A stretch of 20,000 nt of DNA. It comes from an uncultured virus (IMG/VR IMGVR_UViG_3300035498_001541). Its lineage: Duplodnaviria; Heunggongvirae; Uroviricota; Caudoviricetes. Shown in pieces: positions 1,595-18,800 of this stretch (the stretch's first letter is position 1; the number at the start of each line of letters is the position of its first letter). The position numbers and the translations under genes are program-made. The stretch lies in IMG/VR virus record IMGVR_UViG_3300035498_001541; one strand, given 5' to 3'. The notes under the pieces are model-generated. The model saw only the letters and a program-made list of their open reading frames with translations. It did not search any database and was not told the origin of the DNA.

Positions 1595-2320
1595 TCACTG
1601 TCTAAACCATTCAGCCCTTTCGCTGACAAACCTTTTCAGCAACTCCACCCTCTGCTCTGACAAACCGACTGTCTCAAGAATACTAGTATCCAAACCATCC
1701 ATTCTTTCACAGAAATCTTGAAACTGCTTTGGCATCATTTCTCTCAAGTCATTCACCAATTTACAATGTGTAATCTTTCTGCCAAACCTAAGTACTGGTC
1801 TTGACTTCGTCCATACCAAAGCACTAAATCTCAGTCTATCCTTCAAAAAACATTCAATCTTTTCTTCCTCGACATAGCAGCACAAAGAGCTTCCATTATC
1901 AAACAATGGATAGAAACCTCTCTCCTCGTTAAACAGAACATTGCCTAGATGCCTGTCTGAGTTTCCAATCAGAGCATCAAAGAGCAATATCTGAACAAAC
2001 TCATCGCAGAATCTCTCCTTAATCATCTCGGAATTCTCAAATTCTAAGAAACTTTTCAGTTCCCCATCCCAGACTTTCTTGCTAAGAATTGCATCCCTGT
2101 CCATCACGATATCCACACACGGAATCTCCAACTGGTCACACAATGCCTTTGCTAAAAACTCTGAGTAGCTCTCGTATGTACACTCACCAGTAGGAAACAT
2201 CCTGCTCTTCTTGTACAAAAACAGTGAACCATCAGCATCCTCCACCCAAATCTTTGGTCTTGCACCATCAGCTACACTAGATACAACAGAATACTTTGCT
2301 AAAACAATTCCTTGGTTCAT
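1595..2320 (-). CDS. HipA/CtkA-family protein kinase
   Basis: Motifs GARPKIW, LFLYK, SEFLA, LLFDALIGNSDRHLGN (catalytic) and PLFDNGSSL (Mg-binding). ATG at 2320 follows AGGAG. Confidence 0.85.
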   Translation of the reverse strand: MNQGIVLAKYSVVSSVADGARPKIWVEDADGSLFLYKKSRMFPTGECTYESYSEFLAKALCDQLEIPCVDIVMDRDAILSKKVWDGELKSFLEFENSEMIKERFCDEFVQILLFDALIGNSDRHLGNVLFNEERGFYPLFDNGSSLCCYVEEEKIECFLKDRLRFSALVWTKSRPVLRFGRKITHCKLVNDLREMMPKQFQDFCERMDGLDTSILETVGLSEQRVELLKRFVSERAEWFRQ

Positions 2321-2337
2321 TCTGCACTCCTCTACCA
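2318..2337 (-). repeat. Gene-junction repeat J1, copy a (TGG TAG AGGAGTGCAGA ATG)
   Basis: 19/20 identical to 3263-3282. Confidence 0.85.
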
Positions 2338-2823
2338 AACCATCATATCGCCAGTACACCCTACAAGCTCTTCGTATAGCTCTGCAGGATTCTCTGAACT
2401 CTTTATCTCTTTGAAAACACTTACATCATTCTCTCTAACTATCTCAAAAGTGCTGTGCTGTAAGTCCTTAATTGAAGCCCTGTTCACAATAACAAAAGAG
2501 TTCCCTGACTTCTTCACAAAATCAAGAAACTCACTGCTGAAAACAAAATCATTATTTTCTTCGATAAAGACTACTGTATCATGCAAGCCTAAAAGCTCAT
2601 CTTTCCAATCATGCCCAACTTCTTTTCGCAAGTATACAAAGTAATCAGCATCAGTCTCGACTGAATACCCAGACCTTCTACCAACTCGCAGAAATTCATA
2701 CAGCATTCTAAGCAGTACAGTCTTACCGGTTGCACTATCACCTTTTAGCATTACAACCGGTTGCTCAACACTAAACTCAAATACAATCCTCTTACTCCTT
2801 ACTCTAAAATGTTTGCCTTTCAT
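2332..2823 (-). CDS. Small P-loop protein, DUF4869 partner (paralogue 3)
   Basis: Walker A GDSATGKT, Walker B VVFIEE, final strand VIVNR. ATG at 2823 follows GGAGG and overlaps the end of DUF4869. Confidence 0.8.
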   Translation of the reverse strand: MKGKHFRVRSKRIVFEFSVEQPVVMLKGDSATGKTVLLRMLYEFLRVGRRSGYSVETDADYFVYLRKEVGHDWKDELLGLHDTVVFIEENNDFVFSSEFLDFVKKSGNSFVIVNRASIKDLQHSTFEIVRENDVSVFKEIKSSENPAELYEELVGCTGDMMVW

Positions 2824-3265
2824 CAAGAACACCCTCCACAAAAAGTAGCTCATCAACAAACTCTTTTGGGCTATGTACAATCTTTCCTGTATTCATTATC
2901 TCAATTGTAAACTTACCTTCAAAATTCAGAAGATGCTGCAGATACACAGTCAAATCTTTTCTCTTTGCAATCTCTAAAATCCACTTTGCACAGTTATCAC
3001 CGCAATTGGATGCGTTGTAAATAAAGGAATCATCTTTCAACACCAGAATCAAAACCTTTACTCCTCCGGATAGCTCTCTTGGTGTAATTGCTCCCAAAAC
3101 TGGACTCTCTATTACACGAGCACTCCTTACCTCTGACCTATCCACATCTTTAATCATCTGCTTTACTAAACTATCTTCTATCCACTCGTCCTCGAATACA
3201 TTATCAAAATAGCTCTGTGCATCTTCTAAATAATCAATGCCATCCCAATACCAAATCTTTAGCAT
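2804..3265 (-). CDS. DUF4869-family protein (paralogue 4)
   Basis: Family pattern YFDN..EDEW..D..VKQMIKDVD..SPVLGAI...LSGGVK.LI...CGDNC...TVY..H. Confidence 0.8.
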   Translation of the reverse strand: MLKIWYWDGIDYLEDAQSYFDNVFEDEWIEDSLVKQMIKDVDRSEVRSARVIESPVLGAITPRELSGGVKVLILVLKDDSFIYNASNCGDNCAKWILEIAKRKDLTVYLQHLLNFEGKFTIEIMNTGKIVHSPKEFVDELLFVEGVLDERQTF

Positions 3266-3282
3266 ACTGCACTCCTCTACCA
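3263..3282 (-). repeat. Gene-junction repeat J1, copy b (TGG TAG AGGAGTGCAGT ATG)
   Basis: 19/20 identical to 2318-2337. Confidence 0.85.
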
Positions 3283-3699
3283 GTCTTCAGAATACTGCTT
3301 CAATGTATGAAACCCGTTATCATTTACCATCTCAAACACATCATGCTCTTCACGTATCACACCATCTTTCCTACTCATAATCAGAAAGTAATTGTCTGAC
3401 TCATTAAGTAAACTCCTGTATCCCTTAAGCCTAAGAAGATAGCTATCATCATCAATCACAAATACATAATCAGAATCCTTTAACACAGCCTCGTAAGCCT
3501 TTAATGATGTACGTAGTGGCATTACTCGCAGCTTCTCGTACCCCAAGCACTCAATAAGCTCTGGCTCCATCTCGTATGCTGCTACCCTGTTACAAAATGT
3601 TGTTTTTCCTGTACCAGACTTTCCCACCAGCACAGTGTATTTACTTGTAAGTATAAAATCAAACTCAACTTTCTTGTCTCTCAAATGAATTTCAATCAC
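3277..3699 (-). CDS. Small P-loop protein, DUF4869 partner (paralogue 2)
   Basis: GKSGTGKT, VFVIDD, SDNYFLIMSR. GTG start overlaps the upstream TGA. Confidence 0.8.
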   Translation of the reverse strand: MIEIHLRDKKVEFDFILTSKYTVLVGKSGTGKTTFCNRVAAYEMEPELIECLGYEKLRVMPLRTSLKAYEAVLKDSDYVFVIDDDSYLLRLKGYRSLLNESDNYFLIMSRKDGVIREEHDVFEMVNDNGFHTLKQYSEDW

Positions 3700-4145
3700 T
3701 TTTTATTCCTCCGTTTAAAATTATCTAGCATTAGTCTTGTCCATTCATTTACATTGTGAATCTCCCTGTCATCATCCAAGCATACTGCATCAAAGTTCTT
3801 GAAGAAATGCAAATGATGCTCCACATAAACAGTACAGTCACGCATCTTTCCTATCTCTGCTAAAAACTCTGTACAATTATCCCCAAAGAATGCAGAGCCT
3901 ATCACAACATCCTCCTTCAACAACAGTATCAATGCCTTAGCACCTGCTGAAATTTGAGTAATTGGGATACTGCCCAACACTGGACTCATTGCAAGTTCTG
4001 GTCCGAGAATCTCTGTGTTGTCAACACCTTTCACTATCTCTTTAACAAAGGGATCATCAAACCACTCATCCTCTCTGTTATGGGCAAAGTAAGCATTTAC
4101 GCTATGAAGTATTTTGTCTGGTTCTTTAAAAGTCACATATAACAT
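3696..4145 (-). CDS. DUF4869-family protein (paralogue 3)
   Basis: ATG at 4145 follows AGGAGG. About 72% identical (106/148 by hand count) to the copy at 9789-10235. Confidence 0.8.
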   Translation of the reverse strand: MLYVTFKEPDKILHSVNAYFAHNREDEWFDDPFVKEIVKGVDNTEILGPELAMSPVLGSIPITQISAGAKALILLLKEDVVIGSAFFGDNCTEFLAEIGKMRDCTVYVEHHLHFFKNFDAVCLDDDREIHNVNEWTRLMLDNFKRRNKK

Positions 4146-4201
4146 AGTCTTTCCTCCTAAAATGCTAAACAACGTAGAGAACTCTTAATCCTCTACGCCA
4201 A
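4146..4201 (-). repeat. Intergenic repeat J2, copy a (hairpin + T-tract + RBS)
   Basis: Matches 8882-8934 with 3 substitutions and one 3-nt indel. Confidence 0.9.
4167..4197 (-). terminator. Intrinsic-terminator-like hairpin
   Basis: Minus strand CGTAGAGGA-TTAAGAG-TTCTCTACG (one G.U pair) followed by TTGTTT. Confidence 0.65.
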
Positions 4202-4224
4202 GTATAATCTTCATTCATTAAAAC

Positions 4225-4407
4225 CTAAATCGTTCTGATAGGGCTAGGCTCATAACACGCGTAAGCACCATCTGCGCATAATTGTCCACACTTTACGCAG
4301 TCACCCTTCCTAAGCTCTCGTGTCCCAATGCTCCGCTTTTCGCAAAAAGGACACACATCTTTAAGAAAGTAATGCCTCTTCTCGCACTTGTTAATAACAT
4401 AAGTCAT
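4225..4407 (-). CDS. Small Cys-rich protein, possible zinc ribbon (60 aa)
   Basis: ATG at 4407 follows GAGGTG. Contains CPFC and CVKC plus further Cys residues. Confidence 0.65.
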   Translation of the reverse strand: MTYVINKCEKRHYFLKDVCPFCEKRSIGTRELRKGDCVKCGQLCADGAYACYEPSPIRTI

Positions 4408-4420
4408 AGCATGCACCTCA

Positions 4421-4630
4421 CTATCTTGCAATCCTCTCAAAGCCGTATTTAGCAAAATGAGCTACTGCTTTCTTGAAAAACTCTGGAGCATTAGAACAAC
4501 CATCCCCTACTTCACCCAAGCTACTACACGCCTCTGCCCACTTCTGGTCAGCATCGTCAGCATCGTCAATCTGAAATAGGAAATTCTTAATAGAAAAATC
4601 ATACTTCAATCGAATAGAATAACTTTCCAT
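4421..4630 (-). CDS. Hypothetical protein, 69 aa
   Basis: ATG at 4630 follows AAGGAG, 2 nt after the dipeptidase stop. Confidence 0.7.
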   Translation of the reverse strand: MESYSIRLKYDFSIKNFLFQIDDADDADQKWAEACSSLGEVGDGCSNAPEFFKKAVAHFAKYGFERIAR

Positions 4631-4632
4631 CT

Positions 4633-5343
4633 CTATCTCCTTTCCCTGCATTTATCTATAGTTAAAACCTTCTTGGTAAACACTCCCCTGTAAATAGCAG
4701 GCTCACCGCTATAGTACGCCCAAAATCTATCTCCGTAATCGAAGTGCCACCACTCAGAAGGAAGATTTGTAAACCCAGCCTTAGTCATAGCACTGTATAG
4801 CAATCTCCGATTATCTCTGACCAGCTTATTCTCTCCATTCTCAAAATAGGCAGTGTATGTCCTGTCTGAAAACGCATCAAACTTTGTGCCCATCTCAAGC
4901 TCCCTGCCATCAGAGTCAACAATCGTTACATCTACTGCACCACCAGTTGTGTGAACAGGCGGAACATCCCTATCCTCAATTGGTTCAGATACAAACTTCT
5001 TAATTACACTCTGCTTCTGGTCATCAGTGCAATCCTCAAGACCAAACTCTTTTATCACATCATCAGAGTACCTGTAAAACAACTCCTCTTGAAGCGCAAA
5101 CGGCCTCCATGCATCCCATACCTTAAGCCTAAAACCATTGGGTAAATACTGAGCTGCCTTCACCAACCTATCATACACCTCTCTACGTACAAAGCACTGG
5201 CTCTCGGAATTCTTCATCCCCAACACCGGGTACCTCATCTCGACAGCAAACACATCGCCACTCACCACCTCAACAAAAGGCGAATCAATAAACCTTGCAT
5301 CCTCGACTCTTGCAGGCTCTTCTCTGCTAGGAATAAATTCCAT
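4633..5343 (-). CDS. D-alanyl-D-alanine dipeptidase, peptidase M15 (VanX/DdpX-like)
   Basis: LKVWDAWRP, HTTGGAVD, MGTKFD and EWWHF: zinc ligands and catalytic Glu are present. Confidence 0.9.
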   Translation of the reverse strand: MEFIPSREEPARVEDARFIDSPFVEVVSGDVFAVEMRYPVLGMKNSESQCFVRREVYDRLVKAAQYLPNGFRLKVWDAWRPFALQEELFYRYSDDVIKEFGLEDCTDDQKQSVIKKFVSEPIEDRDVPPVHTTGGAVDVTIVDSDGRELEMGTKFDAFSDRTYTAYFENGENKLVRDNRRLLYSAMTKAGFTNLPSEWWHFDYGDRFWAYYSGEPAIYRGVFTKKVLTIDKCRERR

Positions 5344-6530
5344 TACAATTTCGCCCCCTTAGCTCCACCAAGGCTTGCTGAGTCCAGAATATTTGTATCA
5401 AAGGTAAATGTTAAACTATCTTCCGTCCGTTTTCTCTTCAAAGCTAACTGAATCACCCTATCAAGCAACTCTTTATAGCTTACGCCAAGAGGCTCCCACA
5501 AATAGAAAGCTAAAGAACCGGGAATAGTGTTTATCTCATTGAAATACAACTTGCCATCTGACCTATCAATCATAAAGTCTATACGAGCAACACCGTTACA
5601 CCCTAAAGCCTTGAAAGCTTTTACTGCCAGCTCTCTTATTTCTTCTCTCTGCTCTAATGACAGTTCGGCCGGTATCTTCCTAGACAGACTAGCCATACCC
5701 TTTGTGTTTCCTCCCTTTGCACCACCAACGTATTTGTCCTCATAACTCAGAATATCATCTGTATGAAAAGGCTCTTCACACTCAGATGCTGTGGCTTCAA
5801 TCTCGTTACCAAGCACTGAACAGTTGATTTCTTTCAAGTCAGAAATTGCCTTCTCGACAAGAACCTTTGTAGCATACTTAAAGGCATCATCAATTGCATT
5901 CACCAGCTCAATCCTTGTCTTTGCAACATTAATACCTACGCTTGAGCCAAGGTTCACCGGCTTAATTATCACAGGATACCCAAATTGCTGTTCAACAGAA
6001 TCAGCTAACGCATCCACATCCTCGTAGTCACCGAGCGTAAACACACTGGCATCTAAAACAGGTACACCAGCCTCTTTCAGCACCTGCTTCATCACATATT
6101 TATCCATACCTATTGCAGATGCAGTTACATCACACCCAACAATAGGCACCCCCATCACCTTTAGAAATCCCTGCAATGCCCCATCCTCAAGATTAGTTCC
6201 ATGCACAATAGGAAAAGCTAAATCCACATCCAAAGCCATATTCTTTCCTATCTTCTTCATGGGATACTGTACCAACTGGACACTGCCACCATCATTCACC
6301 ATTATCACTCTCATGGACTTACTCAAAAGAGCATCCACATCCTTGTAAGACTCAATCTTTCCGACCCCACTGCCGACATACATCTCGTTTGACTTTGTCA
6401 AGTATACAGGAATAACCTCATACTTATCAGTATCCAAATTCATAATAGCTTGAATACCAGAGATAACAGAAACCTCATGCTCCACACTCTTTCCGCCAAA
6501 CAATACAGCTATTTTAGTTTTCACTTTCAT
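5343..6530 (-). CDS. ddl: D-alanine--D-alanine ligase
   Basis: GGKSVEHEVS, HGTNLEDG, MDK, KPVNLGSSVG, YEDKY, ARIDF, NEINTIPG. Confidence 0.93.
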   Translation of the reverse strand: MKVKTKIAVLFGGKSVEHEVSVISGIQAIMNLDTDKYEVIPVYLTKSNEMYVGSGVGKIESYKDVDALLSKSMRVIMVNDGGSVQLVQYPMKKIGKNMALDVDLAFPIVHGTNLEDGALQGFLKVMGVPIVGCDVTASAIGMDKYVMKQVLKEAGVPVLDASVFTLGDYEDVDALADSVEQQFGYPVIIKPVNLGSSVGINVAKTRIELVNAIDDAFKYATKVLVEKAISDLKEINCSVLGNEIEATASECEEPFHTDDILSYEDKYVGGAKGGNTKGMASLSRKIPAELSLEQREEIRELAVKAFKALGCNGVARIDFMIDRSDGKLYFNEINTIPGSLAFYLWEPLGVSYKELLDRVIQLALKRKRTEDSLTFTFDTNILDSASLGGAKGAKL

Positions 6531-6535
6531 TCCTC

Positions 6536-8098
6536 CTAATAGTTATCTGGCAAATCGTTCTCAAGCAGAATATACTTGTGACCTTGCCCTTTTATAGAAT
6601 AGGCGTATGAAATTGCTTCATCCAACCTATCAAAGACTAAACATCTTTTACCGGAAAATCCTTTGCTTAATACACCATTCCTAATAGGCTCTGTGCGATT
6701 CTTCCCAACCAATAGAACATAATCGCAACAGTCTGCAGCGTATTCCCCAAACCTGTAATTAAATTCCTCTTCACTCTCGCCCAGCTCAACCATTCCTGGC
6801 GTAATCAATATCCTGATACCATCAAACATTGCTAAAGTCTCAACCGCTGCTTTAGAGCCAACAGGGTTAGAGTTATAAGCATCGTCAATAATCGTTACTG
6901 AACCATGCTCTCTCATCTGCATACGATGCTCAACTGGCTGAAGCTTTCTAACCGGAATCCGCAGCTCTCTCAATGTCATACCAAGTGTATGAGCTACTGA
7001 AATAGCACCAACTACATTAATCACATTATGAGCACCTATCAGTTTTGTCTGGTATCTTTCACTCTCTCCGTCAGGCGTTACTACAGTAAACTCAGTCCCG
7101 TATTGAGAAACCTTAACATCCTTTGCACAGTATCCGTATCCCTCTTTTTCGGAATAATAGAACACTTCATTCCTATACTTCTTTGCTCTCTCCTGCACAT
7201 AGTCATTATCTCCATTTAAAAATAACCTTCCATCGGAAGGTAAGGCATCTGCAAGTTCAAACTTAGTTTTCTGAATATTCTCCATACTGTGAAATGTTTC
7301 TAAATGTTGTGGCCCAATTGATGTAATAATACCTAAATCCGGATGTGCAATATCACACACTTCTTTTATCTCTCCAACTCGTCTTGCACCCATTTCACAC
7401 AAGAAAATCTCATGCGTTGGTTTCAAGTATTTCCTAACCGTAATCGTAATGCCTAATGGCGTGTTGAAATTCCCCGGAGTAGCCAAAACATTAAACTTGC
7501 TCTGCAATAATGTCTGGAGATAAAACTTCATACTCGTCTTACCATAGCTACCGGTAATGCCTATTACCTTTAGATTCTCAGCCTTCTTCAGTTTCTTCTT
7601 TGCATCGTTCACATAGTAATTTCTGATGCAAGCCTCAATTGGTGCGTTAATTACATTCACAACTAAGTCCAAGAATACCTGTGCCGAAACCAGCACCACA
7701 AAGATACCAGCTAAACCATCCTTACCAACTATGGCAAAACCTGCTCCTACCACAGCACAGCTCACCACTACTATAGTGGCAATCATCCTACACACTCTAG
7801 CAGTAAACACAAGTTTCTTCTTATTATGTAGTCTCCGCATTGCCCTGTATACAAGAATAATAAGCAGCAGAGTTCCGCAAACTACCACATCTAACACAAA
7901 CACTGGAAATAGCATTCTAACCACACCCAGCAACATCCCAAATCCAAGAAGCCATTGCTGTCTCAAATTCTTTCTTATCCATCTGACATGCTCATCATTC
8001 TTGTAACCATTAAGCTGAAACATATGCACATTGTGTCGCATTGTAAGAAAGAAAGCATATACCGACAGTACACCCACAACAAAAGTTCTAATCCACAT
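6536..8098 (-). CDS. murF: MurF-type ligase with hydrophobic N-terminal membrane segments
   Basis: GITGSYGKTS, NFNTPLG, EMGA, HLETF, IIDDAYNSNP, GMVELG. The first ~150 aa are hydrophobic. Confidence 0.88.
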   Translation of the reverse strand: MWIRTFVVGVLSVYAFFLTMRHNVHMFQLNGYKNDEHVRWIRKNLRQQWLLGFGMLLGVVRMLFPVFVLDVVVCGTLLLIILVYRAMRRLHNKKKLVFTARVCRMIATIVVVSCAVVGAGFAIVGKDGLAGIFVVLVSAQVFLDLVVNVINAPIEACIRNYYVNDAKKKLKKAENLKVIGITGSYGKTSMKFYLQTLLQSKFNVLATPGNFNTPLGITITVRKYLKPTHEIFLCEMGARRVGEIKEVCDIAHPDLGIITSIGPQHLETFHSMENIQKTKFELADALPSDGRLFLNGDNDYVQERAKKYRNEVFYYSEKEGYGYCAKDVKVSQYGTEFTVVTPDGESERYQTKLIGAHNVINVVGAISVAHTLGMTLRELRIPVRKLQPVEHRMQMREHGSVTIIDDAYNSNPVGSKAAVETLAMFDGIRILITPGMVELGESEEEFNYRFGEYAADCCDYVLLVGKNRTEPIRNGVLSKGFSGKRCLVFDRLDEAISYAYSIKGQGHKYILLENDLPDNY

Positions 8099-8882
8099 GA
8101 TTGTTCTCCAATTCTAAAAATGTCCTCATAATACTTCTAAAGATAGCCGGCTTCTCTAAGAAAGAGAAATGCCCAGCACCTTCCAAAACAGCAAGCCCTG
8201 CATTTGGTATCATCTTCTCCATTAGCCTTGCGTCACCTATTGGTGTTGCTGTGTCTAAATCTCCCCAAACCAAAAGAGTCTCCTGCTTAATACCCGGCAG
8301 TAAATCTGTCAAATCCTCATTGATGGCTAAAACCATGCACTGCCTCATCATAGGTGTTGCATTCCTGTAGTCAGCTGAACCCTGCCTACTCCTCCAATCA
8401 TCAATAAGCTCTGGAAAGAGAAAGTAGACAACCTTTAGATTCAAAAACTTCTGCAGTACCTTGTACTTCTTCACTTTAAACTTCTGCACGAAAGTCAGCT
8501 CAGGCTTCACACCTGCACTATCTATCAAAACAATCTTTTCAATCTCAAAAGGATTATCCTGCCTATTTGCAAGCTTTATAATTACCCTGCCACCGTAAGA
8601 GTGCCCTATCAATACAGCCCTCTCCACACCCAGCTCCTTCAAGAAAGCACAAACAAAATCACCGTATGCATCTACATTCCATGCCTCCTCCGGTTCGTCG
8701 CTCTCTCCAAATCCAGGAAAGTCCACCTGAATTACTCTGTACTGGTCATTAATCGTATCTGCAACTAAATCATACAGTTTCAAGCTGGTTCCCCAGCCCT
8801 GCAAGATTACTGCAACATTATTGCCTTCTCCTGTCACCCTATAGTGTACGTTGCACCCATCAATCTCAACATTCATTGTCAA
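8088..8882 (-). CDS. Alpha/beta-fold hydrolase
   Basis: LQGWG, DFPGFG, GHSYGG nucleophile elbow, WGDLD, GHF. Start is TTG 8882 or ATG 8876, after AGGAGG. Confidence 0.9.
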   Translation of the reverse strand: MTMNVEIDGCNVHYRVTGEGNNVAVILQGWGTSLKLYDLVADTINDQYRVIQVDFPGFGESDEPEEAWNVDAYGDFVCAFLKELGVERAVLIGHSYGGRVIIKLANRQDNPFEIEKIVLIDSAGVKPELTFVQKFKVKKYKVLQKFLNLKVVYFLFPELIDDWRSRQGSADYRNATPMMRQCMVLAINEDLTDLLPGIKQETLLVWGDLDTATPIGDARLMEKMIPNAGLAVLEGAGHFSFLEKPAIFRSIMRTFLELENNHVD

Positions 8883-8934
8883 GTCTCTCCTCCTAAACTA
8901 AAAAACGTAGAGAACTCTTAATTCTCTACGCCAA
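8882..8934 (-). repeat. Intergenic repeat J2, copy b (hairpin + T-tract + RBS)
   Basis: Matches 4146-4201. Confidence 0.9.
8899..8930 (-). terminator. Intrinsic-terminator-like hairpin
   Basis: Minus strand CGTAGAGAA-TTAAGAG-TTCTCTACG (perfect 9-bp stem) followed by a T run. Confidence 0.7.
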
Positions 8935-8961
8935 CATTTCAACGTTATTCAATTAAAAGAA

Positions 8962-9627
8962 TCATCTAGGGCAAATCTGTTCGAGTAAACTTTCCCCCTC
9001 AACGAACTCATATGGGTTATAAAAATAAAATATGACATCTCTAAACACTATGTCAAGATCATAGCAGCAATCAAACAGCACATACTCGTCCCAAGTTTCA
9101 AAAGGAACCTTAATATTGCATACTCTAAGAACTTCAGCCCTTCGTCGAGCGCAGTGAACACTCTCCTTCAAAAACTCCGTGTTAAGCAACTCCTTTAAAT
9201 TATCCCGCCCAGCCTCCGAAAGTATCTCATTACGTATATACATATCATCAATAATATATTTCAACTTTGGACGTAATTCTTTCTGGTGGAAAGCTCTTCC
9301 AACAGCACCAACAGCTTTAGAATAGAAAGCGTCTTTGACAAAGCTACTTAAAGCCCAGTCATTATGAAGATTGATAAACTCACGTATACATACAGCATTA
9401 AATAAATCTGCGTCTTCCACTTCCGATGTTGCATAAAACGGGAAATCCTGATTACGCAGATAGTCAATCACTTCTTCCCTACTTATTGGGGCTTCTTTGT
9501 TAGGACGAAAAGAAATTGTACGTCTAACATCTTTTACATCACTAATTGTCCTTATTATTCCTTTGTGCTGCATTAGATATCCAACTACTTCCTGATGAAT
9601 CTTTGTAACATGATATGTCTTCCTCAT
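8962..9627 (-). CDS. Hypothetical protein, 221 aa, atypical codon usage
   Basis: ATG at 9627 follows GGAGGA. No recognised motif. At least six CGT Arg codons. Confidence 0.75.
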   Translation of the reverse strand: MRKTYHVTKIHQEVVGYLMQHKGIIRTISDVKDVRRTISFRPNKEAPISREEVIDYLRNQDFPFYATSEVEDADLFNAVCIREFINLHNDWALSSFVKDAFYSKAVGAVGRAFHQKELRPKLKYIIDDMYIRNEILSEAGRDNLKELLNTEFLKESVHCARRRAEVLRVCNIKVPFETWDEYVLFDCCYDLDIVFRDVIFYFYNPYEFVEGESLLEQICPR

Positions 9628-9665
9628 AAAATCCTCCAATCTGCATTGCACTAAGGCAATACCTC

Positions 9666-9696
9666 GTTGCTAAGTTTACTATTTATTTATAGCAAC
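9666..9696. promoter_or_regulatory. 7-bp inverted repeat GTTGCTA-N17-TAGCAAC, possible operator
   Basis: Lies in the AT-rich gap upstream of the orphan ORF and overlaps a TG-N-TATAAA extended -10-like element on the minus strand. Confidence 0.35.
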
Positions 9697-9788
9697 AATG
9701 AAAGTGTTTATGGGCTATCAACCATGCGTTATTTTGGAACAGATCTAAAAAGATTCAACTTTTTGGTTTTTTAAGTGAACTTCTATCA

Positions 9789-10235
9789 TCATGCAGACCT
9801 CCGCACAAAATAGTCCAGCAATAGTTCCTCCCAGTCATCAACACTATGAATCTCCCTACCGTCATCTAAACAAACTGCATCAAAATCCTCAAAGAAATGT
9901 AGAAAGTGACATACATAGACTGTACAATCGCGTTTCTTCCCTATCTCAGCTAAGTATTTTGTGCAATTATCACCATACTGAGAAGATTTCATCACACGAT
10001 CCATCTCCAGTGTAACAATCAATGCTTTTGCTCCACCAGAAATTTTAGTAATAGGTATTGCTCCTAAAATGGGGCTCATTGCAATTTCTGGACCAAGAAT
10101 CTCTGTGTTATCTACACCCTTCACCATTTCTTTTACAAACGGATCATCAAACCACTCATCTTCTCTATTAAAGTCAAAGAACGCATTGATACTATTAATC
10201 GATTTTTCCGGTTCTTTAAAAGTTACATACAACAT
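9789..10235 (-). CDS. DUF4869-family protein (paralogue 2, no downstream P-loop partner)
   Basis: ATG at 10235 follows GGAGGTG. Motifs ISGGAKALI, GDNC, TVYVCH. Confidence 0.8.
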   Translation of the reverse strand: MLYVTFKEPEKSINSINAFFDFNREDEWFDDPFVKEMVKGVDNTEILGPEIAMSPILGAIPITKISGGAKALIVTLEMDRVMKSSQYGDNCTKYLAEIGKKRDCTVYVCHFLHFFEDFDAVCLDDGREIHSVDDWEELLLDYFVRRSA

Positions 10236-10258
10236 ACAAACACCTCCAACTAAAAACA
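10233..10258 (-). repeat. Gene-junction repeat J3, copy a (TGT TTT TAG TTGGAGGTGTTTGT ATG)
   Basis: 25/26 identical to 11382-11407. Confidence 0.9.
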
Positions 10259-10660
10259 ATCCATTTCTCCTGAGAATCCTCTAAGCTCATGCTTCCTGCC
10301 ATTTGAAACCATCTCGACTTCCACAGTCTGTGTCAAGCCTCTAATACCAAACCTGCTAACAATCACGAAATAATTATCCGAACTATTTAGCAACTCTGCA
10401 CAATCATCCCTAAACAGAATTGGATTGCACTCATCCATAAAAAGAATCATACCTTTTGTAGCAAGATCCCTCTCCGACTCAACAACCTTTAAGTCCTTAT
10501 CAGCTAAGCAGTCAACAGCTTCTGGATTACTATTAGAGTCTCTAACTAAATCAATCAGTGTAGTCTTCCCTTTACCGGAATCACCTCTAATAATCAGAAA
10601 CTTCTGCCTAAACTCAAAGTCGTACTCAACAAAATTATTTCTCAAACTCACACGAGGCAT
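10250..10660 (-). CDS. Small P-loop protein, DUF4869 partner (paralogue 1)
   Basis: GDSGKGKT, ILFMDE, SDNYFVIVSR. TAATG overlap with the upstream gene. Ends in MDCF. Confidence 0.8.
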   Translation of the reverse strand: MPRVSLRNNFVEYDFEFRQKFLIIRGDSGKGKTTLIDLVRDSNSNPEAVDCLADKDLKVVESERDLATKGMILFMDECNPILFRDDCAELLNSSDNYFVIVSRFGIRGLTQTVEVEMVSNGRKHELRGFSGEMDCF

Positions 10661-11103
10661 TAGTCAAAATACCCCCTATCTTCTAAATAACAATCCATAA
10701 AATCCCCATCACTTTTGATTTCCTTACCTGTGTCAATACACACTCCATCAAAATCCTGATTAAATCTCATTGGGTGCTCATAGAAAAGCGTTACGTCTTT
10801 CATCTTGCTTATCTTAACAATCCAGTCTGAGCAGTTATCACCACAAGCAGTTCCCCAAATAATCTTATCAGTCTTTAACATCAAAATCAAAGCCTTTACA
10901 CCACCAGAAATTTTAGTGATTGGTATTGCACCTAAAACGGGACTTATCACTACACCACCATCAACCAACTCAGAACTATCTACATCCTTTATCATCTGTT
11001 TTACTAGTGGGTCTTTCAACCATTCTGTATCGTATCGATTGTTAAAGTAAACATCAACGTCCCTGTTAAAGTCCTTTGGCTCTCTAAAAGTTACATACAG
11101 CAT
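10660..11103 (-). CDS. DUF4869-family protein (paralogue 1)
   Basis: VKQMIKDVD, SPVLGAIP, ISGGVKALI, CGDNC, TLFYEH. Confidence 0.8.
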   Translation of the reverse strand: MLYVTFREPKDFNRDVDVYFNNRYDTEWLKDPLVKQMIKDVDSSELVDGGVVISPVLGAIPITKISGGVKALILMLKTDKIIWGTACGDNCSDWIVKISKMKDVTLFYEHPMRFNQDFDGVCIDTGKEIKSDGDFMDCYLEDRGYFD

Positions 11104-11114
11104 ACCCTATCTCC

Positions 11115-11384
11115 TTAGAATCCTATAATGCAGAAACCATTATCTAAATCCTGCTTGGTGCAGTCATCTGAAACATACTTAATGGTCACAGATGTTTCTC
11201 TCCCTGTGTACTCATCACCATCACACTCACGAAGCCTAACTGTATCTCCAACTCTATACCCACAATCGTTCTTCTGAATCTTAAACATTCTTTCTCCACC
11301 AAGAACTGCTTCAAAATATTCATGCAAGATTTTTAGCTCATGAACCATTACTGATTTACAGCTTCCTTTTCTTGCAACACTCAT
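11115..11384 (-). CDS. ASCH/PUA-like DUF3850-family protein
   Basis: HELKI..YFEAV..G...F....ND..Y.VGD...LRE......YTGR....I.YV pattern. Confidence 0.8.
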   Translation of the reverse strand: MSVARKGSCKSVMVHELKILHEYFEAVLGGERMFKIQKNDCGYRVGDTVRLRECDGDEYTGRETSVTIKYVSDDCTKQDLDNGFCIIGF

Positions 11385-11407
11385 ACAAACACCTCCAATT
11401 AAAAACA
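11382..11407 (-). repeat. Gene-junction repeat J3, copy b (TGT TTT TAA TTGGAGGTGTTTGT ATG)
   Basis: 25/26 identical to 10233-10258. A partial third copy (GGAGGTGTTTTGTATG) lies at 12752-12767. Confidence 0.9.
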
Positions 11408-12754
11408 GCTCATTGTACCCATCAGTCTCTTAAACACTTTAGCAAAAGTCCTAAAGTCTCTGGTCACGCTATCAATATCGGAATAGCAAACCTCTTTACT
11501 ATTTACGACCTCTGCCTTTTCCTTACCATTGTATATAACAAACCTACCATAAACATCATTATCTGGCATTGAGTCTTCAACAACATCACTTACTAAAGAT
11601 GCTCCATCAGGCAGCCTAGTCTGATCACTCAGCTTACACTCGAAAAGGCATGTTGCTCTACTCCGACCTTCATCAACTACAATAAAGTCCAATTCAAAAT
11701 CTCTGCCAGCTTTTCTACCTTTTGAATAATACAACTTCTCATCCTTAGTAATCACCTGCTTAAGGGCAACTACGCATGAGCACTCGAACAGATACCCCAT
11801 CATAGAATCCGGTAAATCATCCCTACCCCAAATCGCTCTTACAAGCTGATATGACATAGACTGGTTTACAACGTAAACTCGAAACTGATTTCTCACCCTG
11901 TAATTTGCCACTCTAATCACAATTCCTGCTTTCTCCATAACCTCAGAAATTGTACTAAAAGAATGCATGTCAATCACTACACTGCTATCGACACCAACCT
12001 CTTCTAAAAACTCTTCTTCGCTAACTCTGTCTAAGTTTCCTGCAGCACTCGGCACTGATTCAATCACAGAATCGCAAATCGCCTTATAAAAAATCGTGTA
12101 GACTACAGCCTTCACAATCTTCTCATCAATCTCATTGCCAACGTAGGCAGACACATTGTCAATAATAGCAGTCTTTACGTATTCTCTCAAACTGCTAAAA
12201 CTGTCAATCACATAATCCTCAAAAACACCGCCGGTTCTCAAAAACTCAAGGCAACTCTCTTTCGTCTTTTCCTTTCTAAAGAGTCGTCTGTATTCACTGT
12301 ATGAAAAATAATTAGTCTGCACTACAATCACACGATGTATCAGCCGACCATAGTTCAAATACTCAAGCACTATAGACTCTGTACCCGACACAATCACTCT
12401 TTTTCCATTCTCAACTAAAGTGTAAAGGTATGCATCTAAATTTTCCCGACCTCTAATCCATGGGTATTCATCAATAACAATGACATCTTCTGTTGCATCA
12501 CGAAGAACTTCCAGATAATCCTCATAGTCCTCTGTCTCTCCTGCTTGTGCAGTAAGGTACAACACACTTTCCGCAACCCCCTGTAGAATCCCAACAGTCT
12601 TCCCTGTTCCTCTCAATCCACTAACAACAAGAACTTTCATGCTCTTGCCGGCAACATACGTACTAATACTTTCTACGAAGTCACGTTTCTCCCAATCGCT
12701 CTCGACTAAACTACCTTTTAGTCTTCTAAATTCTTCTCCTCTAGCAACTAGCAT
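11399..12754 (-). CDS. AAA_14-type ATPase with C-terminal DUF4143/PD-(D/E)xK-like domain
   Basis: GLRGTGKT, VIVIDEY, VIVSGT, FSYSEY, FLRTGG; C-terminal ELDFIV...LFECK. ATG at 12754 follows GGAGGTG. Ends in MSCF. Confidence 0.8.
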   Translation of the reverse strand: MLVARGEEFRRLKGSLVESDWEKRDFVESISTYVAGKSMKVLVVSGLRGTGKTVGILQGVAESVLYLTAQAGETEDYEDYLEVLRDATEDVIVIDEYPWIRGRENLDAYLYTLVENGKRVIVSGTESIVLEYLNYGRLIHRVIVVQTNYFSYSEYRRLFRKEKTKESCLEFLRTGGVFEDYVIDSFSSLREYVKTAIIDNVSAYVGNEIDEKIVKAVVYTIFYKAICDSVIESVPSAAGNLDRVSEEEFLEEVGVDSSVVIDMHSFSTISEVMEKAGIVIRVANYRVRNQFRVYVVNQSMSYQLVRAIWGRDDLPDSMMGYLFECSCVVALKQVITKDEKLYYSKGRKAGRDFELDFIVVDEGRSRATCLFECKLSDQTRLPDGASLVSDVVEDSMPDNDVYGRFVIYNGKEKAEVVNSKEVCYSDIDSVTRDFRTFAKVFKRLMGTMSCF

Positions 12755-12773
12755 ACAAAACACCTCCGTCACC

Positions 12774-12802
12774 ATTCTAGCACATCAACTGTGCCATTAC
12801 AA
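12774..12802 (-). promoter_or_regulatory. SigA/sigma70-type promoter candidate for the accessory operon
   Basis: Minus strand TTGTAA-17 nt-TAGAAT with an extended -10 TG, directly after a terminator and just before the AAA gene RBS. Confidence 0.65.
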
Positions 12803-12841: not shown

Positions 12842-15800
12842 TTAGTGCGTTCCAGCACTATCGTAATCATCAGAAGCTGACTTTCCTAAATCGTACATTA
12901 TAAAATCCCCTTGTTTAAACTCAAAGGTCTGTCCTTTAGAATCAGTCTTCTTGTCGACTCTCTGCTCCAAATTCCACATATTGCAGTTGCCACTCACATA
13001 CTGACTTGCGTCGTAAGCTAAATACTTCTTAACCTCTCCGCTCTCATCGTCAGCAGCATTACCAACACTAGAGTATGCTTCAATCTGGAAATTCACAATC
13101 AAGTATCCGTCATCCTCGCACCAGTAATCCTCAGTAAAGTCAACACCAGATTTCAAATCTTCTGTCAACTTGCTCTCGTCACTCGTCTTAATTGCGTGAA
13201 CCTCATCCGGCAAGTAAAACTCTCCATACCACTGCTGATGTGCTTTGGTCAGAGTTCCTGTTCCAACCTCACTGCTAGAGGGGGCTGTAACACTCGTACC
13301 ATCGTTCATTGTCAACAAAGGTACACTGTTTCTACTTCCGACGAAAATCCTGCTAAAGTTGCTCAGAGTAATATCTGAATACGTCCATGAGTTCACAACC
13401 TTGGTTGCAAAAGAGTCCGTATCCGTGTACCCACACAACTTAGCTGTTGTTGCAATTACACTTGGAAGAATACCGTATTCTTTATCACTGATACACGTCT
13501 GATGAATATTAAGATTATCTTCATCGCTACCGACTTTCACCAGTTTCTTAGTGGTTCCGTTAATCTGCTCTTTGTAATACAAATTAACATCTACAGCATC
13601 CTGCACCCCTTTTCCTTTCGGAACATACTGGAATGTAGGTGTTATCTTCACATAGTCGCTGGAGCTAGTCAAACTACCGATAGTGTTCACTAAATACCTA
13701 ATCTTGTAGCCCGTCTTCAGTGGTCCGTAAATCACTTCATCCGTACTACTATTGCCAAGCTCATCTCCGTACACAACTGGATACGTGTCATCGTCATCCG
13801 CTCTGTTCGTCCTCGTGCTTGAGCTATAGGTTCCACTGTTAATAGTGTACAGTGACCTATTGTATCCGGTAGTTCTAAACACTTTCTCTAAAGTTGGGTA
13901 ATCTGAAATATCAGTGATACTCAAATCAAACAACTTACCGGAAAGGTTCGTGTAAACTGTGCTAGTTGCTGCATAGTAGTCCCTAATGCAGTTAGCAGCT
14001 GCTGCTCTGTACTTCTCGTCATCCTTCGGAAGAAGAGTGCTACCTTCGCTACCAGTATTAAGCACATTCAAAGCCTGCACAGTTACATCTACATTATGTG
14101 TCCCTTCTTTTGCCCAATTAGCTACATAGAACACTGTGTTCTCGAGATCCGTCACACTAAACTCTTTGCCCTTCTTGTGGAATGTCATTGTACCGTCTTT
14201 CTTCTTCTCGTATACCGGGAAGTCACACCGTACTAAATACCCACAATTCTCTTTCACATATTTCTCTGTGTCGATACTTGCGTATACAGGGAAATATCCT
14301 GTGTAGCTGGCAGTCAGCTTAAATGCATCTCCTAAAGTCAAGTCAAGGATACCATCTGTCCCTTTCTCAACTTTCTGGAGATAATTATCTGAACCGACTT
14401 TCGTCATCTTCACACTGAGAGCCACCGGAGTGTGTAACGTAATCTTGTTTACATTATCTGTTGAAACGTCAAAACTATTAGCTGCAATACCATCGGCAGC
14501 CTTTGTATTGCTACCAACAGCTACAGTAGATTTGTACGTCATCTCTAATCTGCTATCTGGACTAGGCCCATCCATGGTGTCACCTGTGTTCAGCTTGTTA
14601 CGGCTGATTTTAATACCACTAGTCTGATACGTTCCATCAACACAAGATTCGGCTGACGGAATCTTAAAGGTTCCCAAGTCGTACCCATTCACAGTCACAT
14701 AATCACCCTGGTTAATCTTGCTCGGCATATACTGTGAAGTGCTTGCAACCGTAGCCATATCACCTGTCATCATAGTGTATGTTCTTGATGCTTTATCGTA
14801 CCTCTGCTCAATTGCAGTGGAGCTCTCGCTCTCCTCAATATCCGGGTCTTGTGCCCAACTTGGCAATGTGAATGTTACTGTATCACTCCTTGCCCAGAAA
14901 TTACTCGTAGTTGCAATACTATCCATCACTGCACTCAAAGCTGAAGCCATTGTTGAAGTATCAGCAGCGGGAACATTAAAGTACGTAACCTTGTCCTCGT
15001 CATTAAATGTCGCATCTGCCACATCAATATTAGGTGCAGCAATCACATTGTCTAAAGCACTGGTATCACCATCATCACCATACCAATGGCAACCTCCTGG
15101 GTCAACACCACTATTGTACGTCACAGTACTACCTACAATTGTCCCATCTTTGCAAGCCGACGCATTCTTACCTAGGCTTACGTAATACTCCTTACCATCA
15201 TAAGTTCGCGTATCCGCATCCTCCGTCGTCTTACCACTCGAGCTTGGGAATGCGTAGTTATACATCTTACCCGTATCGGAATCCCAAACCTTTAAGTAAT
15301 CCAACGTGTAGTATACCATTCTCACTGAAGGACTAAGTACAGTCTTGTGAACATTCAAACCTAAGGTCCTTCCGTCATCAGACGCGACTATCTTAGCCAA
15401 CTGTGCAACTGTCACATCATACCTTACATTCACCGTATGCTTTGTCACACTTCCCGCCGTCAAGTAAGACGTCGACCAAGCATCTAGACCTAGGAGATTC
15501 GCGACATACTGACCGCTGATTATCTGCCCATCCGGTAGCGTGATATTACCATCGCCTCCGCTATCGGCTGTGTCGTTTCCAACAATATTGGAATCCTCAC
15601 CTTTCACCTGTGGGTCTGCTGTTGCAGTAATCTTGCCCTGAAGTCCAAAGTCATCTCCATTCACAGAAGTTGTTGTCTTTCCGGATGGATTTGCTGTGGC
15701 AGTTGCCTTTGGAATATCATCCCAAGTGTAAGGCGTTGTTGTCACTTCCGGGTATGATGTTGTCTTAGTGGTAATCTGTGCGTAATAGTAATACGTGATT

Positions 15801-18800
15801 ACGACGCTGTCTTTGGTGCGGTTTTGACCTACATTTTTGACTGTTGTGTAGTAGTTGTCATTTACGATTTTGCAATTATCATCATTGGCGTCATTACATG
15901 TTTGTCCTGCGGCAAGCTTGCTTCTGTTTGCAACAGTCAAGTTTACACCATCACTGCCTAATACATCCCACCGATACCGACAGGTGAAATAGTTAATTCT
16001 ACTGTCAACAGCATTGGTTGTGCTATCGTACGGAGAGATATATTGTGCTCCAATATAATTATGTGTTACTATCTGATTTACAGCTATATTTGTAGAACTA
16101 TTGGTCTGGTCTGCTGTCAAACCTGCCGTATAGAGCTGTCCTGAGTTACCGGAAAGCCCGGAATTATAGTAACCTCTGTTGGCTTTTCTTCCACCAATGT
16201 TTGTAACACTTTCTGTATAACAAATCGCTTTTGCTCTGGACAACGGACTATCGTATGCAAGTACACCGGAAACATAATGGGCATCCCGCATATCACTAGA
16301 ACCGGTTGAACCCTTAGAATACTTCTCTGTGTTGTATTTGCCATTCTCCTCTGTGCCGCTTGTCCACTCCTCTGTTGTCAAACCGGCTAAAAGTACATAG
16401 TCTTCATTGTCGCTCAAACCTAACTTTGCGTTTGGAACCATCTTTGCCAAATCTGAGTAAACCTTGTACTCGAAAGTCTGTTTCTCTGTGGAGTTATCGA
16501 CATCCTCATCCTGATACGTGTAGTCAAGCCATTGTACATTATCGGTACTAACATCTTTTAATGCTGCTGTGCCGATACCAATTTTCAGATTGACAGTAAT
16601 ATGCGGCTCTGGCTCATCTACTTTGTAAATTGAAGTGGCGAGGGCAACTTTCTTAATCTTCGTAGTGGCAAATGTTGTTGTGTCCCCACTCTTGATTGTC
16701 CCACCATTGCTACTCGGAAGTTTCTTCTTCTTGTTCTGCTGTTTCTTTGTCCAAGAGTCTTTCTTCTCGTCAGAGTAGCCCTGCCAATTACTTGCTTTTG
16801 CATCCGCAACGTAGCTGTCTGTCTTTTTTACCTTCCACATATACTTGAGAAATTCGTCGCTCATTTCGCTTGTTTTCTCATAGCAAATTCTGTGATTTTG
16901 TACTTTTACAGTGTTGCCGTTGTCGTCTTTCTTAACATCACTAAAAGCATTGTCGTCGACGAAAGCCTTGTAGATTTTTTCGGCAGTAGTGCTTTCACTT
17001 ACATCACCTAACTGGAAGTACTCACCCATATTATTCTTCTCATCATTGACTTTATTACTCTTGTTGTCAACAGACTTGATACTATCTCCGTAAATTTTAT
17101 AAGCTAAAGTCTGGAAATCAACTGCATAGTACTGTACATACCAATTTGTATTGTCATTTGCGTGTGATGTTCCATCTAAATCTTTGAAACTCGTATCATC
17201 AGTATTGAACGTGATTGGATCACTATCGTCATCCTTAAGCACAACCTTAGAAAAACCACAATCCTCCAAAATCGTGAGGTTCTCATCACTGGTCATTTGC
17301 TTACTGTATTTTCTCGTTGTTGTACCATTTTTTGTCTCAGTAGCTACAATAGCTGCTTTAACAACTTCAACAGTAATATCACTTTTGGTAACATTATCGG
17401 TGTCATTTTTATATTTGTCACCTTTACCATTTTTATCATTATCATTAGTTGCGTTGTCTTGGTCAACAAGGTACTGTTTTACCTGGCTCTTCTGAATTAC
17501 ATACGCAGGAACTCTCGCAAAGTATGATTTCTTATCACGTGCCCTAAATACGTATGAACTGTCCGGCTGGCTTACTGTCAAACCTTTATTGCAATCCCCG
17601 CAACCACTATCTGTACCACCGTAATTCGTACTGCCACTTTTTGTACTACTTACCTGCACATGTCCTAACTTTCTTCCGCTGGTGTCTTTTTGATTCAGCT
17701 CATGCACATAGGAGTAACTGAACTCGCCATCTACCTTGTGCTGGAAGTACATCGCAGAAGTGTATATTGTCTTTGGCTGGTAATAGTTCAGAGTAACGTT
17801 TAATTTGGTCTTCACATAGTCATTGCTGGATGAATCCATCAGAGGCACTACCACCTTATGCTTTAGCAATAGGTCTGCACCACTATCACCCGTATTACTC
17901 TCAAACTGAATACCACGAGAATCATTATTGCCATTCCATACAGTAGCATCTCCCTCAAGCTTAGAAATACTTCCAGTACCGCTATTAGCATCGTTTCCAC
18001 TCGAATTATACAAATGGATAGACGTTTGCCCTGTAAACTTCGGGTTTCCTCCAGTAATCTCATACTGGACATCGTGTAGCGGGTATGCGTACTTACTCTT
18101 TTTCACATTTGTTTTGTTGAAGTCTTTAAGACGAGACTCGGCTACTGACCATGCTGTCTGCTTTTCTGAATTCAGAGTGTATACTAGTGTTCGCTTTGTG
18201 CTTGTTGTCGTGCTGACTATCTCATAGCCACCTGCACCTTCGTTTGCACTGTCGTTCCACTCCCAAACATTCTGTGTGATATTTACTACATCATCGGTGC
18301 TGCCGACTTCTTGGTAAATCAAGTAGATATCTTCATCTAAACCATGCTTCTTGTGGTAGAGACTTTCCATATATGCCACCGCCTTGGTGTAGGAAAGATT
18401 ACCACTACTATTTGCCTTTGCCTTTGCACCTTTCGCATCATTCGTCTTTGTCCTTGCTGTTCCGTCGGAATTCGTATTGCTTTCCGTCTCTAAAACTTTC
18501 CCTTTGTCATCCGTTGCCCTAAACAAACCAATGCTGTTTTCGTTAGCATTTGCAGCCGCAAATTTTCGAACCTGTGCCGCTTTCATTACATCTCCAGCAA
18601 AGGTATCTTTCTCTTTTCCAGTACCATTTGGTTTACTGTATTTTGTGATTGTCTCGCTTTTGGGATTTAACACAATCTGCGGACTGGAATCGTAGTCATT
18701 CAGTACATAGAAGTGCTCCTCCTTATCCCCTGCTACAACCTTGATTCCTTTAAGATAATACCCCTTGCCAGTGATAGCATCTGGACTCAATTTGTCCAGT

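Follow-up and report, generated by a model that had tools for sequence, protein, structure and literature searches.

In the 20,000-nucleotide stretch of DNA analysed here (called the window; IMG/VR record IMGVR_UViG_3300035498_001541, from an uncultured virus), three different gene junctions, J1, J2 and J3, are each present twice as direct repeats, and each pair encloses whole genes of a single minus-strand array. J1 encloses a DUF4869 gene and its P-loop partner gene; J2 encloses six open reading frames (ORFs) that encode an alpha/beta hydrolase, a Mur ligase, a Ddl-type ligase, an M15 dipeptidase and two small proteins; and J3 encloses a DUF3850 (ASCH-like) gene, a DUF4869 gene and a P-loop gene. 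We hold with moderate confidence that J1–J3 are the marks of three serial insertions with long target duplication, in which junctions of 20–56 nucleotides (nt) would have been copied by the modules that landed in them. The evidence that carries this reading is that the repeats are in register with the neighbouring genes and younger than the paralogous genes around them, that those genes are of mixed ancestry, and that an independent case outside the window shows the filled site in one genome and the empty site in another.

Duplicated junctions and their register with the genes

All of the long ORFs between positions 7 and 19705 lie on the minus strand, and their families were assigned with Pfam, PADLOC and NCBIfam (Table 1; D and P denote DUF4869 and P-loop genes, respectively). 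In the direction of transcription the array runs from a 2287-amino-acid (aa) ORF through the AAA_14/DUF4143 ATPase gene, J3b, the DUF3850 gene, D_c, P_c and J3a; it continues with D_b, a 14-codon remnant of a P-loop gene, orf229, J2b, the six-ORF module and J2a; and it ends with D_a, P_a, J1b, D_d, P_d, J1a and a HipA-like kinase gene.

Table 1. Positions of the junction repeats and genes in the window (RBS, ribosome-binding site)
Feature	Position	Strand	Remarks
HipA-like kinase gene	1595..2323	-	PADLOC candidate PDC-M03A; downstream of J1a
J1a	2318..2337	-	W codon and stop of P_d, RBS, ATG of HipA-like kinase gene
P_d, P-loop gene	2332..2823	-	163 aa; collinear with the N-terminal part (residues 1-163) of a 330-aa orthologue
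D_d, DUF4869 gene	2804..3265	-	J1 module; 71-72% identical to orthologues in three other genomes
J1b	3263..3282	-	W codon and stop of P_a, RBS, ATG of D_d
P_a, short P-loop gene	3277..3699	-	140 aa; its tail is the start of J1b
D_a, DUF4869 gene	3696..4145	-	72% identical to D_b
J2a	4146..4201	-	13-pair hairpin, T-rich tract, AGGAGG RBS; ends at ATG of D_a
Six-ORF module	4225..8876	-	hydrolase 8088-8876, MurF-like ligase 6536-8098, Ddl 5343-6530, M15 dipeptidase 4633-5343, small ORFs 4421-4651 and 4225-4455
J2b	8882..8934	-	same hairpin (called terminator-like) and RBS; ends 5 nt before hydrolase ATG (8876)
orf229/221	8962..9627	-	gene upstream of J2b
P-loop gene remnant after D_b	9745..9789	-	14 codons; homologous to 5' end of P_a
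D_b, DUF4869 gene	9789..10235	-	
J3a	10233..10265 (core 10233-10258)	-	last codons and stop of P_c, RBS, ATG of D_b
P_c, short P-loop gene	10250..10660	-	136 aa; last gene of J3 module
D_c, DUF4869 gene	10660..11103	-	J3 module
DUF3850 (ASCH-like) gene	11115..11384	-	first gene of J3 module
J3b	11382..11414 (core 11382-11407)	-	last codons and stop of AAA_14/DUF4143 ATPase gene, RBS, ATG of DUF3850 gene
AAA_14/DUF4143 ATPase gene	11399..12775	-	upstream of J3b

The two copies of J1 are identical at 19 of 20 positions and those of J3 at 25 of 26 (the latter can be extended to 29 of 33), and the copies of J2, which are 53–56 nt long, differ by three substitutions and one 3-nt indel, or 89% identity over 56 columns. 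A preliminary description of this DNA had given these positions and identities correctly, and the Pfam assignments agree with the contents it had listed for each bracket. It was also right that the genes downstream of the two copies are unrelated in every pair, and that the genes upstream of the J3 copies come from different families (small P-loop versus AAA_14/DUF4143). Its statement that identity ends at the start codon probably does not hold for J2b; five relatives of the hydrolase start with MN(I/V)..(V/I)DG or similar, so the hydrolase start is most likely the ATG at 8876 and J2b stops 5 nt short of it.

Chance was gauged with 200 dinucleotide shuffles of the window, in each of which the longest exact direct repeat was scored. 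The longest in any shuffle was 17 nt, and repeats of at least 16 nt arose in 21 of the 200. The longest exact run shared by the J2 copies (19 nt) is above every shuffle and the exact core of J3 (17 nt) equals the shuffle maximum. When up to three mismatches are allowed, the 29-nt core of J2 and the full 26-nt pattern of J3 each occur exactly twice in the window with 0 expected, and the 16-nt core of J1 has two copies with 0.27 expected. Chance thus falls far short of explaining J2 and J3. As a bare 16-mer J1 is weak, and it is convincing solely through its position: each copy opens with the W codon and the stop codon of a small P-loop gene and continues via the RBS into an ATG. When the sequences upstream of the 21 window ORFs were compared, no other junction resembled J1–J3. 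Each J sequence occurs only twice in the 20 kb, and a generic RBS context, the alternative that the preliminary description had itself raised, is very improbable.

J2 forms a 13-pair hairpin that is terminator-like in J2b and has the same stem with a poorer T tract in J2a, and for J1 and J3 the predicted folding is no stronger than that of shuffled sequence (z-scores -1.05 to +1.12). A GGAG-type RBS is present in all three pairs, and no promoter-like site coincides with J1–J3. The junctions are thus, as had been proposed, different at each site and unlike integron attC sites, with three sequences in two copies each and no fold in J1 or J3.

Age of the repeats and ancestry of the modules

The junction repeats are 89–96% identical, and the paralogues that flank them share only 27–45% of their residues. 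Identity among the P-loop paralogues is 27–33% and among the DUF4869 paralogues 34–45%, except for D_a and D_b at 72%, whose DNA is 74% identical over 406 nt reaching into the first codons of the P-loop gene. The repeats are far better conserved than these flanking genes and so are not relics of old DUF4869/P-loop duplications. In addition, the tails of P_a and P_d do not occupy homologous positions when the family is aligned.

In a maximum-likelihood tree of 18 DUF4869 proteins, D_d joins its orthologues from genomes G041, G317 and G063 (support 100/98), D_a and D_b are sisters (100/97), and a protein from another metagenome-assembled genome separates both from D_c (94/95). A clade of all four window genes was recovered in 0% of 200 bootstrap trees. 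According to this tree the array was built from different lineages and one local duplication. A tandem paralogue array made by local duplication was considered and rejected, as its members are not mutual closest relatives and only D_a and D_b are sisters.

P_d is about half of a longer gene. Its residues 1–161 align with residues 1–163 of a 330-aa orthologue at 53% identity, and it ends two codons past the end of this homology, inside J1a; on such alignments, truncation at a repeat is demonstrated for P_d only. The gene that follows DUF4869 elsewhere encodes 324–349 aa in four of the six cases examined and is shorter in the other two, and P_c has only two homologues, both short. The usual DUF4869 partner, about 325 aa long, combines an N-terminal Walker A/B ATPase with a conserved C-terminal half (L018:10331-11305, L019:8177-9157, L020:8505-9497, L002:9063-10112); no Pfam family matches this C-terminal half even at E up to 1, and all three P-loop genes of the window are without it.

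The hydrolase/MurF-like/Ddl trio of the J2 module is found, at 63–68% nt identity, in a minority of the 401 Lachnospiraceae genomes that were sampled, and it stands without any other window gene in all five other loci examined. No J2-like sequence is present upstream of the hydrolase gene in five relatives, whose upstream regions are unrelated. The earlier proposal of cassette-like accretion is supported indirectly by this solitary occurrence of the trio, together with the non-monophyletic DUF4869 genes, the repeats younger than the paralogues and the half gene P_d at J1a. The trio is a patchily distributed Lachnospiraceae cluster, and in the window it carries in addition the M15 D-Ala-D-Ala dipeptidase gene and two small ORFs, one of them of zinc-ribbon type. 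By NCBIfam the Ddl-type ligase (395 aa) scores above the D-Ala-D-Ala ligase subfamily cut-off and below every Van-type cut-off, and the MurF-like ligase (520 aa) lies below the murF cut-off. The guanine-plus-cytosine content of the J2 insert is 41.9%, that of the DUF4869 parts 36.6–38.4% and that of the giant 2287-aa gene about 42%; assignment of donor and recipient from these values was dropped because the difference is too small.

Relatives of the window as a whole are distant. Megablast of the entire window against plasmids and phages gave no match, and in a DNA search of the 401 Lachnospiraceae genomes the best identity was 66–68%, confined to the Ddl-Mur-hydrolase interval. The J1, J2 and J3 patterns had no match in 67 Lachnospiraceae genomes (0 each), and the exact J2 core had none in the metagenome and viral contig collections. 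None of the three D_d orthologues is preceded by J1; their homology to D_d begins at the ATG and the upstream DNA is unrelated. Because of these orthologues with unrelated upstream DNA and the absence of the patterns from all 67 genomes, we conclude that the junction sequences belong to the window locus and not to the modules; this lends no support to the idea that the junctions were already present as crossover sites on the incoming DNA.

A ToxN insertion and DUF4869 loci outside the window

In genome G159 (locus L018, G159:C4) a ToxN gene (9159-9734; Pfam 7e-39) separates two DUF4869 genes. It is preceded by a tandem repeat of 3 x 38 nt (9030-9148) that has no Rfam match, so its identity as ToxI is unconfirmed (no Rfam family was found anywhere in L018 or in the window). 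The insert lies between two 57-nt copies that are identical at 50 of 57 positions (L018 region 8737-9832), and each copy contains the end of the first DUF4869 gene (11 codons and the stop) followed by a further 20 nt. Genome G423 (L046, G423:C51, 790-945) has a single 57-nt copy and no ToxN insert; its left flank matches that of the first copy (DUF4869 coding sequence) and its right flank is that of the second copy (the spacer before the next DUF4869 gene). The ToxN insertion of G159 has left a target-insert-target scar where a DUF4869 gene ends, and G423 shows the corresponding empty site. At the locus of a ToxN homologue in another genome there is no trace of the 57-nt target (best 30/57).

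DUF4869 loci of the G159 type are rearrangement hot spots whose surviving breakpoints lie at gene boundaries. Also in L018, a 46-nt copy (91%; 8279-8324 versus 10276-10321) of a DUF4869 tail, stop and GGAGG stands before another DUF4869 gene, joined to the initial 12 codons of a Fic-like ORF that precede it. Genome G428 (L045, G428:C40) is without the whole 3.2-kb DUF4869/ToxN/P-loop block, and in G420 (L044, G420:C8) homology to the D2-P pair ends 14 nt before the ATG. The P-loop partner gene of G423 has a 222-nt internal deletion relative to G159, and an 8-nt overlap of the BLAST segments at the joint (L046 1457-1464) suggests that microhomology was involved.

DUF4869 is present in 86 of the 401 sampled Lachnospiraceae genomes, mostly in single copy. 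Protein-guided scans for DUF4869 found three loci at no more than 49% identity in genome contigs and, with an alignment as query, nine at no more than 43% in metagenome contigs; the same kind of scan found no locus in viral contigs. In L037 the gene lies within a type I restriction-modification operon, in L018 it adjoins genes for an integrase, AAA_21/AAA_15 ATPases and ToxN, and in L038 it stands beside Macro/HTH and ORF6N genes. The predicted structure of D_d (predicted local distance difference test score, pLDDT, 93.2) gave only weak matches in the commonly seen range (Foldseek best E 0.04, VIA best Z 5.8). The lists of these weak matches consist mostly of ABC/SMC/Rad50-type ATPase heads, including defence ATPases of the PtuA, AriA and LmuB type, and the family has an ISGG/LSGG-like motif. 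Judging from the predicted model, DUF4869 may be a P-loop-less ABC-type head partner.

The 9-kb stretch of the window that contains J1–J3 is best explained as a defence-island-like array of co-directional genes from a Lachnospiraceae-like Firmicute host, and no phage hallmark genes were found in the window DNA. Outside this stretch, the 2287-aa ORF (12842-19705) has no match in Pfam, PHROG, PADLOC or NCBIfam and is followed by a strong terminator-like hairpin (12837-12809). The ORF at 7-834 has weak matches to a sacsin-type ATP-binding domain (NCBIfam) and to TmtA (PADLOC), which are a further sign of a defence-island setting. The orf229 product has no match in Pfam, PHROG or NCBIfam (best Atlas score 0.78). 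HipA-like kinase genes occur near DUF4869/P-loop pairs in three loci (window 1595-2323; L021 3430-4281; L022 3661-4602 and 7449-8390), and the two may be functionally linked.

Origin of the repeats and its significance

If J1–J3 are insertions with long target duplication, gene junctions of the array would have received three or more separate insertions, each of which would have copied its landing site, namely the last codons, stop and RBS at J1 and J3 and the hairpin plus RBS at J2. The outcome would be target-insert-target, in which the upstream resident gene retains its end, the first incoming gene would be translated from the resident RBS, and the displaced gene would retain the second copy; where the last gene of an insert was incomplete on arrival (as P_d and perhaps P_c were), the copied tail and stop would close it. 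We infer that the repeats were themselves made by the insertions, and that the joining would have been illegitimate or guided by microhomology (template switching, or circle integration at short homology) and not the work of a dedicated recombinase. None of the 21 ORFs in these 20 kb matches an integrase or transposase family in Pfam, and no mobility gene linked to the insertions was found within this distance. The tidy RBS-ATG register suggests that joints formed in short homologies around these two signals, or that selection for expression was strong. With direct repeats as long as these, a module could also be lost cleanly.

Insertion with long target duplication was reportedly found by Nobusato et al. 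(2000, Gene 259:99) for restriction-modification genes. In the account of such insertions by Furuta, Abe and Kobayashi (2010, NAR 38:2428, PMC2853133), the passages on restriction-modification genes describe unique 46-bp (base pair) repeats that overlap 15 bp of the upstream gene's 3' end, repeats that often span start or stop sites, partial genes that can be inserted, and no mobility gene; the operational cut-off there is a repeat of more than 30 bp, and dispersed repeats are set apart as chance insertion between repeats. It is because the window matches these features that we read J1–J3 in this way: as in the cases those passages present, direct repeats of tens of bases, different and locally unique at each site, flank defence-type genes with no recombinase gene nearby, the repeats often take in the 3' end of the gene upstream or span start or stop sites, and partial genes can be among those inserted. 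The preliminary description had taken the pattern for a new mode of gene capture, but judged by those passages it had already been published (PMC2853133). The window differs from the published cases in its cargo, which consists of DUF4869/P-loop pairs, a DUF3850 gene and a hydrolase/MurF-like/Ddl/M15 block instead of restriction-modification genes; in having three serial events in 9 kb, two with repeats at or under the 30-bp screen threshold; in the right end of its repeats, which coincides with the RBS and start and leaves incoming genes without an RBS of their own; and in its Lachnospiraceae-like Firmicute host.

Several observations weigh against this reading. J1 (20 nt) and J3 (26–33 nt) are at or below the 30-bp threshold of the published screens, J2 (53–56 nt) being above it, and J1 as a bare repeat is within the range of the shuffles. 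All three inserts begin 0–5 nt from a start codon and are without their own RBS, which is tidier than random breakpoints would be, and two of them close with a P-loop gene cut near the same domain boundary. Short P-loop forms (158, 120 and 109 aa) exist elsewhere, so P_c may not have been cut by an insertion at all. The C-termini of AAA_14 homologues are variable and none of 11 ends like that of the window, so that copying at J3 may have gone in either direction. Hairpin-plus-RBS linkers can be multi-copy (nine copies in 20 kb of the metagenome contig L033), and J2 may belong to such a dispersed family. The DUF4869 tail remnant of about 80–95 nt in G423 is without a second copy, and tails can thus also arise by deletion. 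Finally, no empty-site allele, circle or read-level variant was seen for the window itself, for which no sequencing run was listed and whose nearest relatives are at about 68% nt and 72% aa identity.

The repeats could instead have been there first. In homology-driven exchange, cassettes would swap at linkers common to resident and incoming DNA, in the manner of the promoter-terminator stem-loop (PeSL) motifs that have been proposed to mediate modular shuffling, with gain and loss of genes, in T4-type phages (PMC2839356, PMC4122927). We regard this as unlikely, though with some weight, and it fits J2 best, a structured 13-pair linker whose J2b copy is terminator-like. In L033 (3483-16024), nine hairpin-plus-RBS linkers lie between successive genes or gene pairs, some of them flanking a DUF4869/P-loop pair, and in L038 a 45-nt intergenic hairpin repeat (89%; 4293-4337 versus 7224-7268) encloses a four-gene module. 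The L033 linkers, which have a palindromic GC-rich hairpin and often a second hairpin and an AAGGAG motif, are a multi-copy terminator-plus-RBS linker family; the L038 module comprises a Macro/HTH gene, a P-loop-like gene, a DUF4869 gene and a 150-aa ORF. The position of the three insert starts, each on or beside a start codon, is also what joints in RBS-ATG microhomology would predict. Such an exchange does not account for a different repeat at each of three sites, each present only twice in 20 kb, nor for the lack of structure in J1 and J3. Neither does it sit well with J1 being absent beside the D_d orthologues, with the missing 57-nt target at the ToxN homologue locus, or with the failure of the J patterns and the J2 core to turn up in the 67 genomes and the two contig collections. 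Moreover, the 20–33 nt of homology available do not exceed the length that RecA-type recombination is known to require. A slightly less probable origin is that the repeats are leftovers of larger segmental duplications, of which later deletions or replacements spared only the junctions. An old duplicate is indeed present (D_a and D_b, 74% over 406 nt into the first P-loop codons), the 14-codon P-loop remnant shows that deletion or replacement has occurred in the window, and the DUF4869 tail that G423 keeps upstream of the next gene shows the same outside it. This explanation, however, would take two or more events for every pair, and on both sides their breakpoints would have to fall at the ends of the repeats. 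Identity is 89–96% in the repeats versus 74% in the only demonstrable duplicate, and the genes that flank each pair are either unrelated or no more than 27% identical.

That the repeats reflect chance, or preferred RBS contexts of the organism, is very improbable. J1 alone could be chance, given the 21 shuffles with an exact repeat of 16 nt or more, and a GGAG-type RBS is common to the three pairs; but with 0 matches expected for the J2 and J3 patterns this explanation is largely refuted for both, about 15 other junctions in the window use different RBS contexts, and the two copies of J1 begin at the same codon and stop of paralogous genes. Least probable of all is an assembly artefact, in which a metagenomic contig was misjoined at short shared words. 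The source is apparently an uncultured assembly and the window proteins are recorded on two to three contigs, the longest of 132,703 nt, but misjoining does not yield target-insert-target with intact reading frames, and recovery of the same proteins on more than one contig also counts against it.

The window also bears comparison with the two best-known kinds of modular junction. Like PeSL motifs as those accounts present them, J2 and the L033 linkers are of the hairpin-plus-expression-signal type and stand at module boundaries; unlike that single motif family used at many sites, the window has three different sequences in two copies each, two of them unstructured, in DNA without phage hallmark genes. 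Like integron cassettes, the modules are repeat-bounded promoterless genes in one orientation, expressed from resident signals. Unlike integrons, the window has no Phage_integrase match among its 21 ORFs and no IntI-type tyrosine recombinase beside the array, its repeats are no imperfect palindromes with a conserved structure (a hairpin is present in J2 alone), and the boundary is an RBS and start and not an attC site downstream of a gene.

A more far-reaching version of insertion with target duplication is that in-register junction duplication, instead of being a side effect of imprecise recombination, is a regular capture route of Lachnospiraceae defence islands, in which modules with neither promoter nor RBS are joined at RBS-ATG microhomology and the DUF4869/P-loop(-nuclease-like) pairs themselves perhaps supply the breaks. 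We consider this improbable at present; breaks supplied by the pairs would explain why scars cluster around them in genomes as unrelated as those of the window, G159 and L038, and captured modules would then be expressed at once from resident signals and be cleanly losable.

For insertion with long target duplication itself, the window quite plausibly adds new cargo, a new host group and three serial events to a known mechanism that has been little studied. If so, the mechanism, known mainly from restriction-modification genes of competent Proteobacteria, would extend to toxin-antitoxin genes (for which G159 and G423 show the empty site), DUF4869/P-loop pairs and a Ddl/MurF-like/dipeptidase block. 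Paired junction copies would be a simple signature by which recent gene gains in metagenome-assembled genomes could be dated and delimited. Defence-type and cell-wall modules would be able to join and leave a packed Firmicute operon without an integrase or transposase, and the inserted modules would be expressed immediately because the RBS of the landing site is copied with them.

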